NCBI RefSeq assembly: GCF_902713615.1
Contig: NC_052151.1
Coordinates: forward strand, 89,363,304 to 89,427,303
Origin: Scyliorhinus canicula
Lineage: Eukaryota
Direction of reading: 5' to 3'
DNA length: 64,000 nt
In this document: positions 2 through 63,010 of the stretch, in pieces
Numbering within the stretch: position 1 is the stretch's first letter
How the letters are laid out: every line of letters starts with the position of its first letter
Program-made: the position numbers and the translations under genes
The notes under the pieces: model-generated
Databases searched by the model: none
What the model saw: only the letters and a program-made list of their open reading frames with translations
What the model was told of the DNA's origin: nothing

Positions 2-1318
2 GTATTCATTTAGTATCTCGCTTATCTCCTCAGCCTCCACACACAACTTCCCACCACTGTCCTTGACTGGCCCTACTCTTACCCTAGTCATTCTTTTATT
101 CCTGACATACCTATAGAAAGCTTTTGGATTTTCCTTGATCCTACCTGCCAAAGACTTCTCATGTCCCCTCCTTGCTCGTCTTAGCTCTCTCTTTAGATCC
201 TTCCTCGCTTCCCTGTAACTATCAAGCGCCCCAACTGAAACTTCACGCCTCATCTTCACATAGGCCTCCTTTTTCCTCTTAACAAGAGATTCCACTTCTT
301 TGGTAAACCACGGTTCCCTCGCTCTACCCTTTCCTCCCTGTCTGACTTGTACGTACTGATCAAGAACACGCAATAGCTGTTCCTTGAACAAGCTCCACAT
401 TTCCAGTGTGCCCAACCCTTGCAGCCTACTTCTCCAACCTACACATCCTAAGTCATGTCTAATGGCATCATAATTGCCCTTCCCCCAGCTATAACTCTTG
501 CCCTGCGGGGTATACTTATCCCTTTCCATCACTAATGTAAAGGTCACCGAATTGTGGTCACTGTCTCCAAAGTGTTCACCTACCTCCAGATCTAACACCT
601 GGCCTGGTTCATTACCCAAAACCAAATCCAAAGTGGCCTCACCTCTTGTTGGCCTGTCAACATATTGTGTCAGAAAACCCTCCTGCACACATTGTACAAA
701 GAACGACCCATCCAATGTACTCGAACTATATCTTTTCCAGTCAATATTAGGAAACTTAAAGTCTCCCATAACAACTACCCTGTTACTTTCGCTCTTTTCC
801 AGAATCATCTTCGCCATCCTTTCCTCTACATCTCTAGAACTATTAGGTGGCCTATAGAAAACTCCCAGCAGTGTGACCTCTCCTTTCCTGTTTCTAACCT
901 CAGCCCATACTACCTCGGAAGAAGAGTCCCCATCTTGCATCCTTTCTGCCACCGTAATACTGTCCTTGACTAGCAGCGCCACACCTCCCCCTCTTTTGCC
1001 CCCTTCTCTGACCTTACTAAAACACCTAAACCCCGGAACCTGCAACAACCATTCCTGTCCCTGCTCTATCCATGTCTCTGAAATGGCCACAACATCGAAG
1101 TCCCAGGTACCAACCCATGCTGCCAGTTCCCCTACCTTATTTCGTATACTCCTGGCATTGAAATAGACACACTTCAAACCACCGAGCTGAACACTGGAGC
1201 CCTCCTGCGAAGTCAAATCTGTGCTCCTGACCTCTCTACTCTCAATCTCCCGTAACCCAAAACTACAATCCAGGTTCCCATGCCCCTGCTGAATTAGTTT
1301 AAACCCCCCCAAAGAGTA
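2..1318 (-). CDS. CR1 ORF2p N-terminus (APE endonuclease plus linker), open to the window edge; absent from the ORF track
   Basis: Hand translation gives LKCVYFNARSIRNK, ISETW, GGGVALLVK, YRPPN, MGDFK, LDLVL, SDHN and KAFYRYV with no stops. It is in the -1 frame relative to ORF1; the first in-frame ATG is at 940. Confidence 0.9.
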
Positions 1319-1911
1319 CTAACAAATCTCCCCCCCAGGATATTGGTGCCCCTTAGGTTCAGATGTAGACCATCCTGTCTATAGAGGTCCCACCTTCCCC
1401 AGAAAGAGCCCCAGTTATCCAGAAATCTGAATCCCTCCCGCCTGCACCATCCCTGTAGCCACGTGTTTAATTGCTCTCTCTCCCTATTCCTCGTCTCACT
1501 ATCACGTGGCACGGGCAACAACCCAGAGATAACAACTCTGTTTGTTCTCACTCTGAGCTTCCATCCTAGCTCCCTAAAGGCCTGCCTGACATCCTTGTCC
1601 CCTTTCCTACCTATGTCGTTAGTGCCAATGTGGACTACGACTTGGGGCTGCTCCCCTTCCCCCTTAAGGACCCGAAAAACACGATCCGAGACATCACTTA
1701 CCCTTGCACCTGAGAGGCAACATACCAAACGTGAGTCTCTCTCGCTCCCACAAAATCTCCTATCTGTGCCCCTGACTATTGAGTCCCCAATTACTAATGC
1801 TCTGCTCCTCTCCCCCCTTCCCTTCTGAGCAACAGGGACAGACTCCGTGCTAGAGTCCCGTACCCCATGGCTTACCCCTGGTAAGTCCCCCCCCCCCCCA
1901 CAAGTATCCAA
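1294..1911 (-). CDS. CR1 ORF1p C-terminal part (SGNH/GDSL esterase domain)
   Basis: Motifs GDSIVR, GARV, HIGTND and DGLHLN; ends WGGLN*. Confidence 0.9.
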   Translation of the reverse strand: MDTCGGGGDLPGVSHGVRDSSTESVPVAQKGRGERSRALVIGDSIVRGTDRRFCGSERDSRLVCCLSGARVSDVSDRVFRVLKGEGEQPQVVVHIGTNDIGRKGDKDVRQAFRELGWKLRVRTNRVVISGLLPVPRDSETRNREREQLNTWLQGWCRREGFRFLDNWGSFWGRWDLYRQDGLHLNLRGTNILGGRFVSTLWGGLN

Positions 1912-1929
1912 AACGGTATACTTGTTACA

Positions 1930-2084
1930 ATCGACAAAGTTTCATGGTCATCATTCGACTGATTCAGGATTTTTATTGAATTCAAATTCCACCATGGTGG
2001 GTTTCGCACCCAGGTCCCCAAACTAAAATGAAGGGTCGCTGGGTTACTAGTACAGTGACAATACAACTACACCACTGTCTCCCC
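1930..2084 (-). mobile_element. tRNA-derived SINE 5' fragment
   Basis: Minus strand starts GGGAGACAGTGGTGTAGTTG (A box), with a GGGTGCGAAACCC B-box-like motif. Confidence 0.55.
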
Positions 2085-60139: not shown

Positions 60140-63010
60140 GGATGGAGTGGAGCGCGTCAGGAGGACCTCCTGCCAGCGGGAGACCGGAAGATTTTTAGAC
60201 CACAGGGCCAGCAGGAAGGCCTTCCAGACTGTCCCATTCTCCCTCTCCACCTGTCCGTTTCCCCGGGGGTTGTAGCTGGTCGTCCTGCTCGAGGCAATGC
60301 CCTTGCTGAGCAGGAACTGACGCAGCTCATCACTCATAAAAGAGGATCAACGATCGCTGTGGACGTAGGTGGGGAAACCGAATAGTGTGAAGATGCCGTG
60401 GAGGGCTTTAATGACCGTGGCAGAAGTCATGTCGGGCCTTCCCCTTATTTTGAGGCGATGCCCCCTAGTTCTGCTTTCACCCGCCAGTGGAAACAACCTG
60501 CCCACATATATTCTATCTATTCCCTTCATAATTTTATATGTTTCTATAAGATCCCCCCTCATCCTTCTAAATTCCAACTAGTACAGTCCCAGTCTACACA
60601 ACATCTCCTCGTAATCCAACCCCTTCAACTCTGGGATTAACCTAGTGAATCTCCTCTGTACACCCTCCTGATCTCCCATTATTAAATCTCCCTTCTCATC
60701 CTCTAAAGGACCAATATTTACCTAAGCCACTCTTTTATGTTTTATATATTTATAAAAACTTTTACTATCTTTTTATATTCTGAGCAAGTTTACTCTCATA
60801 ATCTATTTTACTCTTTATAGCTATTTTAGTAGCTTTCTGTTGCCCCCTAAAGATTTCCCAGTCCTCTAGTCTCCCACTAATCTTTGCCACTTTGTATGCT
60901 TTTTCCTTCAATTTGATACTCTCCCTTATTTCCTTAGATATCCACAGTCGATTTTCACTCTTTCTACCGTCCTTCCTTTTTGTTTGTGTAAATCTTTGCT
61001 GGGCACTGTGAAAAATCGCTTGGAAGGTTCTCCACTGTTCCTCAACTGTTTCACCATAAAGTCTTTGCTCCCACTCTACCTTGGCTAGTTCTTCTCTCAT
61101 CCCAATGTAACCTCCTTTGTTTAAGCACAAAACACTAGTGTTTGATTTGACCTTCCCACCCACCATCTGTATTTTAAATTCCACCATATTGTGATCGCTC
61201 CTTCCGAGAGGATCCCTAACTATGAGATCATTAATCAATCTTGTCTCATTACACAGGACCAGATCTAGGACCGCTTGTTCCCTCGTGGGTTCCATTACAT
61301 ACTGTTCTCGGAAACTATCGCGGAGATATTCTATAAACTCCTCCTCAAGGCTGCCTTGACCGACCTGGTTAAACCAATCGACATGTAGATTAAAATCCCC
61401 CATGATAACTGCTGTACCATTTCTACATGCATCAGTTATTTCTCTGTTTATTGCCTGCCCCACCATAATATTATTATTTGGTGGCCTAAGGACTACTCCT
61501 ATCAGTGACTTTTTCGCTTTACTATTCCTGATTTCCACCCAAATGGATTCAACCTCATCCTACACAGCACCGATGTCATCCTTTACTATTGCCCGGATGT
61601 CATTCTTAAATAACAGAGCTACACAACCTTCTTTACCATCCACTCTGTCCTCCCAAATACTTTGATTCCCTCGGATATTTAACTCCCAGTTGTGACCAAT
61701 CTGATTGACCATGTGAGATATGGGTGAGAGGGGGTACACGTCGAGCTGGGTGTACCGATTGATGGTCTGACTGTAGTCAATGACTATCCTGTGCTTCTCC
61801 CCAGTCTCTACTACTACCACTTGAGCTCTCCAGGGGCTGTTGCTGGCCTCAATGACCCCTTCCTGCAGAAGCCGTTGGACCTCCGACCTGATGAAGGTCC
61901 TGTCCTGGGCACTGTACCATTTGCTCCTGGTGGCGACGGTTTTGCAATCCAGGGTGAGGTTAGCAAACAAGGAAGGTGGATCGACCTTGAGGGTCATGAG
62001 ACCGCATACGGTGAGGGGGGGTAGGGGTCCGCCGAATTTTAAGGTTAAGCTTTGGAGGTGGCACTGGAAGTCCAGGCCAAGTAACAGGGCAGCGCAGAGG
62101 TGGGGGAGGATGTAGAGCCGGAAGTTGCTAAACTCTACGCCTTGGACTGTGAGGGTCGTGATGCAGTACCCCCGGATTTCCACGGAATGGGATCCGGAGG
62201 TCAGAGAGATTTTCTGGGTAACAGGGTGTACTCTGAGGGAGAAGCACCTTACCGTACTGGGGTGGATGAAGCTCTGTGTGCTCCCGGAGTCAAAAAGGCA
62301 GGTCGTCTCGTGCCCATAGATTTTCACCATCGTTGTTGCGTTCGCAAGTTTGCGGGACCGAGACTGATCCAGAGTGATCGAGACGAGCTGCGGCAGATGC
62401 TGGGAGGTCCCGGGCTGGTCAGCGGTGGTGGAGGTAGCGGCAGGTGATGAACGGCCAGACGAGCAGGGGTCCTGAGGCGCCGTCCAAAATGGCTTGCGAG
62501 GAGGAAAATGGCGGTGCCCCTGGGTCGCATGTGGGGGATGTAGGAATGCCGGGCCTGGAAACAGCAGCGACCAACCGGGCAAACAGAAACAAAGTGTCCC
62601 TTCTTTCCACATCCGTTGTAGGTGGCGCTCCGCACTGGGCAGTGTTGCCGGGGTTGCCCGCAAAAATAGCACTTGTGCCCCCCTGGTGTTGGCTGGCTGC
62701 CGTGTGGCTTGAGGGCTCAGCTGCAGGCGATCAGGCTTGATGGGAAGATTAATCGTTTTAAAAATCTTTGCTCAATAAATTGATGCACTATCAATTACCA
62801 CAAAGACGAGAGTAATAGAATAATCGAGGCTTTATTGAGCAAAGATGTTGTGCCTCCTGTAGCTGCTACCAGAATGGCTGCAGCACCGGCGAGCACACAC
62901 ATTTATACGCCGCCTACTGGGCGGAGCCAGCAGGCAGGGATTTACCCATGTACCTCTAGTATACGTGCCTTACCGTAATACATATAATACTGCTAGTGGT
63001 GACTACCACA
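60140..63010 (-). mobile_element. Rearranged Gypsy element: 5' LTR 62781-63010, gag/PR/RT 61697-62755, integrase 60140-60437
   Basis: Gag CGKKGHF..VC, protease LFDSGS, RT SPWRAQV...IDYSQTIN and integrase HSDR...YNPRGNGQVER. Confidence 0.88.
60438..61696 (-). mobile_element. CR1 EN fragment joined to a CR1 RT C-terminus, embedded in the Gypsy
   Basis: RPPN, MGDFN, LDLVL and SDHN; internal deletion at about 60670; EFRRMRGDLIETYKI. Confidence 0.9.

Follow-up and report, generated by a model that had tools for sequence, protein, structure and literature searches.

A slippery heptamer abutting the ORF1 stop of esterase-type CR1 LINEs and its probable use in -1 frameshifting

Esterase-type CR1 LINEs probably express their second open reading frame as an ORF1-ORF2 (esterase-endonuclease-RT) fusion, which would be made by -1 programmed ribosomal frameshifting (PRF) in a manner comparable to retroviral Gag-Pol. 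The ORF1/ORF2 junction carries what we consider a real and conserved recoding-type signal: judged from sequence, it resembles a canonical -1 site by all tests except 3' structure. Frameshifting at this place had been proposed in a preliminary description of the DNA, and the proposal now gains comparative support and is partly supported, as three highly shifty heptamers appear to interchange directly before the ORF1 stop.

Two CR1 junctions within one window

The window, i.e. the whole stretch of 64,000 nucleotides of Scyliorhinus canicula DNA that was analyzed, starts with a CR1 LINE on the minus strand (copy A), which extends past the window edge. Its ORF1 remnant (1297-1926, minus strand) corresponds to residues 99-307 of the full CR1 ORF1 and was recognized by homology and by its domain match as SGNH/GDSL esterase (PF13472, 1.6e-14). 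ORF2 follows in the -1 frame (2-1318, minus strand) with a variable linker and then an APE endonuclease (PF03372, 1.7e-17), and leaves the window. With an esterase ORF1 followed by an APE endonuclease ORF2, copy A has the arrangement of an esterase-type CR1 LINE. Its own RT lies outside the window, RVT_1 is carried by P0215, which is 81% identical to copy A, and the nearest named relatives are sharks and rays. Copy A is 5'-truncated at about 1926, where the match to a full-length 307-aa shark ORF1 begins at residue 99. Consequently, it lacks an ORF1 start and the frameshift claim can concern the family only. The sequence just upstream of the truncation point (1927-2075, minus strand) has no second copy within the window and resembles the head of a tRNA-derived SINE.

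On the minus strand, ORF1 of copy A ends CTT TGG GGG GGT TTA AAC TAA, with Gly-Leu-Asn as its last codons. As stated in the preliminary description, U_UUA_AAC (1297-1303) is in frame with ORF1 and is directly abutted by the stop codon (1294-1296), which is UAA here and UAG in copy B and in the distant element L001. The description of ORF2 was confirmed as well: its -1 frame is closed upstream by a UAG (1319-1321) and has no stop between 1318 and the window edge, while its first in-frame AUG, at 940, is residue 127 of the open frame and lies past both endonuclease motifs, NARS and SETW. The closing UAG is retained by nearly all of the read depth in three DNA runs, and its position is not conserved in other subfamilies. 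Two other features turned out to be narrower than first thought. The 22-nt overlap of both frames is true of copy A if the stop is excluded, but it is subfamily-specific; including the stop, the overlap amounts to 25 nt in copy A, 148 nt in the decayed copy B and 58 nt in L001. Likewise, a second heptamer that overlaps the first, G_GGU_UUA (1300-1306, minus strand), is present in copy A but is not kept family-wide, being absent from copy B (G_GAU_UUA) and in lineages with ALN, YLN and TLN endings.

Copy B (26395-27304, plus strand) is a CR1 of a different subfamily that, though decayed, shows homology to ORF1 over its full length; both copies share 47% ORF1 identity over the shared part and are 71% identical in DNA. 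Its ORF1 ends GAG GAT TTA AAC TAG, so that U_UUA_AAC is again abutted by a stop, here UAG (27298-27307), and 16/17 nt of a G-rich stretch of copy A follow at 27312-27328. Beyond this stretch the similarity to copy A collapses. Of the 5894 stop triplets in the window, 41 (0.7%) are immediately preceded by a canonical heptamer, and both CR1 ORF1 ends belong to these. The pattern heptamer+stop+N4+GCAGGGG, which was derived from copies A and B themselves, occurs in just two places of the window, namely the two copies. Taken alone, both copies provide modest or even weak evidence, since many of their synonymous sites are identical anyway (19/42 four-fold sites, 45%; 25/34 two-fold sites, 74%).

Further observations concern the surroundings of these elements. 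In copy B, the linker jumps at 27390-27410 (plus strand) to about ORF2 residue 99, which represents an internal deletion of the first part of the endonuclease. Nested in its RT region is a 5'-truncated CR1 3' end (29080-30230, plus strand) near copy A's family (84% identical to P0215), which is ended by short GTTCTAT repeats near 30210-30230; the tail of copy A itself is not visible. Another 5'-truncated CR1 fragment, from the endonuclease region, breaks a Ty3/gypsy-type LTR element (60440-62771, minus strand) with zinc knuckle, aspartyl protease and RT start, and integrase-like sequence resumes beyond it, as in an ordinary nested insertion. The ORF at 60765-62771 was thus rejected as a new protease-endonuclease fusion.

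Slippery endings among the relatives

A third junction was read as DNA in L001, a distant intact element with 35% ORF1 and 31% ORF2 identity to copy A. Its ORF1 ends CAG GGA AAC TAG, i.e. with G_GGA_AAC and a stop, and ORF2 lies once more in the -1 frame, which stays open for 946 codons. Hence the same pre-stop site is occupied by U_UUA_AAC in copies A and B and by G_GGA_AAC in L001. Like canonical -1 PRF signals, all three junctions have an X_XXY_YYZ heptamer in the zero frame, and past the heptamer the -1 frame remains open and runs into a conserved ORF. L001 was the only one of 24 metagenome or genome loci where an intact CR1-type ORF2 follows the esterase, while the other 23 were different esterase elements, decayed copies or truncated ones. 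L004 was rejected, its endonuclease-like frame being of another type and lacking a heptamer, and L025 and L026, which match the junction DNA pattern, are chance matches without ORF1 or ORF2 similarity. Three protein scans yielded no CR1 relative among viral contigs, and there was no match among plasmids.

For the remaining relatives the breadth of the arrangement was deduced from the C-termini of ORF1 proteins. A first homologue search gave an LN ending in 38/76 proteins. Among the 150 representatives (50% identity) listed by a profile search, the C-terminus was complete in 96, of which 60 end in a tripeptide that fits X_XXY_YYZ, compared to 1097/29368 (3.7%) of internal tripeptides; the profile was built from 37 sequences, 35 of them chosen as LN-ending, and therefore favours LN among the top matches. 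The 91 representatives outside the profile comprise 42 LN, 11 GN, 2 KN and 36 other endings. If both searches are pooled, the C-terminus is complete in 136/214 proteins, and 94 of the 136 end in Asn (75 LN, 13 GN, 2 KN, 4 others). Thus 90/94 have L, G or K before Asn, which are the residues of UUA, GGA and AAA. Most relatives with a complete C-terminus would, by this reasoning, share the arrangement, including A_AAA_AAC.

The residue at position -3 changes along with the ending. Residues with NNY-only and NNR-only codons stand there at 23:1 before LN and at 0:11 before GN, while the control position -4 gave 8:31 and 2:2, respectively. K, E, Q, M or W occupies position -3 in 1/75 cases, versus 110/675 at -4 to -12. 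The Fisher p of 3e-8 overstates independence, since the sequences are related; on a quick tree with long branches, for which the careful search was incomplete, 11 LN and 8 GN changes are needed. Since the -3 residue fits the base that each heptamer needs, these counts point to an RNA signal rather than to a protein need.

It is hardly probable that the ORF1 protein itself needs a C-terminal x-Leu-Asn, for packing or as a C-end signal, with the heptamer as a by-product of codon use. The breadth of the pattern is indeed mostly seen at the protein level, and copy A uses the codons AAC and GGU often. However, LN, GN and KN are chemically unlike and yet interchangeable, the -3 residue follows the third-base class, and the tail from the DGLHL motif to the end of ORF1 varies from 22 to 39 aa while the LN-type motif stays at the stop. 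In addition, only 3/13 conserved Leu pairs of copies A and B use the same codon, but both have UUA at the heptamer. Judging from these sequences, the ending tracks the stop codon and not the protein fold. Through the exchange of heptamer classes and the covariation at -3, with DNA from three junctions, the heptamer appears conserved beyond coding need. Against this, 42/136 complete C-termini end without Asn, some of them as whole clades.

Two such clades (P0066-P0068/P0152/P0155/P0156 and P0070/P0072/P0214) vary in their tails and lack any ending that would fit a slippery site, and therefore probably express ORF2 another way. SN endings (P0127, P0160) and an FFN ending (P0173) occur within LN clades; they are near-canonical and may represent mismatch-tolerant slippery sites. 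The named LN-ending matches include sharks, rays, a chimaera, a snake and a lizard. Three shark-type CR1 proteins (P0003, P0038, P0217) stand under bacterial names (Pseudomonas, Proteus, Carnobacterium) in public databases, which is likely host contamination.

Variation within copy A's family was followed in contigs of four public runs (four studies, organisms A-D), which were placed on 1190-1480. Among the 40 of 59 variants that were listed, none falls in 1259-1306 and 35 fall in 1307-1444, many of them at third codon positions. Since every A>G and G>T place is among these, the changes UUA>CUA, GGU>GGC and CUG>AUG (1273) are excluded at 2% or more in each of the four runs; this exclusion reaches A>G and G>T only, with AAC>AAU and UUA>UUG beyond it. 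The listed variants also bear on a slim chance that the frames are joined at the RNA level, by transcriptional slippage, editing or splicing, or that lineages differ in their use of frameshifting and AUG reinitiation. Natural copies with indels fuse the frames (P0038, P0052), and L001 has both the heptamer and AUGs. On the other hand, neither an indel at the heptamer nor a splice-like joint is among the variants listed from the four runs, whose contigs drop rare forms. Furthermore, three-base runs are poor sites for slippage of a polymerase.

The more serious alternative is termination-reinitiation, in which ribosomes that have terminated at the ORF1 stop start again shortly after it, at a non-AUG or variable codon, and make ORF2 as a separate protein, with the conserved junction serving reinitiation. 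According to the preliminary description, AUG reinitiation would give a truncated endonuclease. This does not necessarily follow: an in-frame CUG (1271-1273, minus strand) lies 21 nt downstream in good context, with A at -3 and G at +4, and some relatives have Met residues in the linker. At the position of this CUG, P0052 has Met, and P0215, P0219 and L001 have an in-frame Met before the endonuclease. Moreover, the stop always abuts the conserved motif, and in copy A it overlaps AUU, which gives a geometry like that of SART1 (UA-AUU). There are LINE precedents too: the covered parts of two papers describe for SART1 a UAAUG stop-start, at which ORF2 lies in the -1 frame (PMC3708506), and for mammalian L1 an unconventional, AUG-independent initiation of ORF2 (PMC5009743). 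While these elements have a bicistronic RNA as CR1 does, CR1 has the slippery heptamer and no conserved start codon. The CUG site is occupied by CUG, AUG, CAG (copy B) or an Arg codon, and no G>T at 1273 reaches 2% in any of the four runs. In place of the overlapping AUG of SART1, the -1-frame codon at the stop is AUU, GUA or GGU, and a Thr codon in P0052, unlike a fixed stop-start. UGGGA is the calicivirus-type (TURBS-like) reinitiation motif. As an upstream signal it was rejected, since it would need W-D/E in the ORF1 protein, which is found in only 24/90. Finally, reinitiation leaves unexplained why X_XXA_AAC heptamers are switched along with matching -3 codons. Taken together, we regard this alternative as unlikely, and frameshifting as the probable explanation.

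The downstream element and the proposed slippage

If ORF2 is reached by frameshifting, a fraction of the ribosomes would slip back by one base at the conserved heptamer directly before the ORF1 stop. Following the standard model, tRNA-Leu and tRNA-Asn would slip in tandem on UUA AAC, the next codon would be read as CUA, and the junction peptide would be GGLN-LIQQG. The junction peptides GGLK and GGFK that the preliminary description expected would need single-tRNA or earlier slippage, whereas standard tandem slippage keeps Leu and Asn. Most ribosomes would stop at the next codon, and the ORF1 protein would be in large excess over the fusion. What could make ribosomes pause is our guess: the adjacent stop together with a short G-rich element, itself conserved, that lies 8 nt past the heptamer, with no pseudoknot involved. 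A role for a nearby stop codon has been reported in pea enation mosaic virus, where it is needed for -1 shifting (covered part of PMC5009743).

The G-rich element (1273-1289, minus strand; 16/17 nt common to copy B) has the spacing expected of a stimulator, yet it also encodes the conserved peptide QGxGN; it is thus a candidate stimulator, a coding sequence or both, and forms at most a weak hairpin. A CAGG/CCTG stem had been suggested here in the preliminary description. Its position is right, as the CAGG...CCTG stretch of copy A begins at 1288, 8 nt past the heptamer, but the fold is weak (-6.6 kcal/mol, z 0.30, no better than shuffles) and the stem is broken in copy B (CCAG). Across six pseudoknot-free folds of the three junctions, no stable stem-loop appeared 5-9 nt downstream (z 0.30 to 1.61), and a local hairpin was rejected as stimulator, being no better than shuffles in copy A, copy B and L001. 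Rfam had nothing at threshold. The best partner of the element is, in both copies, an ORF1 stretch about 240 nt upstream that encodes SGLLPVPR (1505-1530 and 27065-27095). With -24.7 and -18.3 kcal/mol, the latter for the weak pairing of copy B, and with 1/40 composition-matched controls being equal, this modeled long-range pairing is a lead of marginal strength.

A bolder reading goes beyond the junction itself. In this reading a deep lineage of LINEs with esterase ORF1, to which the CR1 elements of sharks, rays and squamates belong, has no other source of endonuclease-RT than a Gag-Pol-like fusion. The -1 frameshifting behind it would rely on the adjacent stop and the short G-rich 3' element, with no pseudoknot. 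The element would then possibly be bound by a protein or engaged in long-range pairing. We put this forward as a tentative idea that is somewhat more likely to fail than to hold.

Known systems and meaning

U_UUA_AAC, G_GGA_AAC and A_AAA_AAC are three of four heptamers that the covered part of a frameshifting review counts among the most shifty in mammalian ribosomes (PMC5009743). CR1 junctions resemble viral -1 PRF signals in having the same heptamers, in frame at the end of a structural ORF and with the polymerase ORF in the -1 frame, and in a candidate 3' element at a distance of about 8 nt. In contrast, CR1 is a non-LTR element for which no pseudoknot or stable hairpin was found, it has no protease to process a fusion, and its stop abuts the heptamer in every lineage. 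A precedent among LINEs is given by the APE-type non-LTR elements TRE5-A and TRE3-A of Dictyostelium, which according to a figure legend in a review require a -1 frameshift for ORF2 (PMC5911963), although host and ORF1 differ from those of CR1. For Paramecium elements, +1 shifting or readthrough has been suggested (covered part of PMC5405496), and the covered parts of PMC6609765, PMC1925062, PMC13405545 and PMC11835228 treat frameshifts in other contexts only.

The esterase ORF1 is shared with CR1 subgroup 7, whose ORF1 type IVB combines zinc finger/leucine zipper and esterase (Metcalfe and Casane, 2014). The homologues found here carry N-terminal Cys motifs, and vertebrate hosts are named among the matches. 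The words 'frameshift' and 'overlap' are absent from the main text of that ORF1 survey (PMC4120745), as is 'frameshift' from the esterase structure paper (PMC3905857), and CR1 is not mentioned in the covered part of the frameshifting review (PMC5009743). The searchable text of the supplements of PMC4316615, PMC4120745 and PMC4255032 holds no ORF1/ORF2 junction DNA. A report of a CR1 slippery site was not found in the literature searched, which was mostly open-access; the original full-length CR1 descriptions lie outside it and may mention the overlap.

It has long been asked how LINEs obtain the ORF2 protein from a bicistronic RNA. As far as the covered parts of PMC3708506 and PMC5009743 tell, the question is solved for SART1 only and partly for L1; the mechanism was called unclear in the former. 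With the conserved slippery site, it can be tested precisely and at low cost in a major family of vertebrate LINEs. Frameshifting predicts a mechanism that would set the ORF1:ORF2 ratio, and a membrane-binding esterase that would be covalently joined to endonuclease-RT. Annotations of CR1 ORF2 that start at the first AUG would, on the frameshift reading, be N-terminally truncated. If the signal works without a pseudoknot, a different kind of -1 stimulator would have one more example in nature. And if endonuclease-RT were indeed made only as this fusion, vertebrate genomes would each hold very many copies of a cellular, structure-poor -1 signal.
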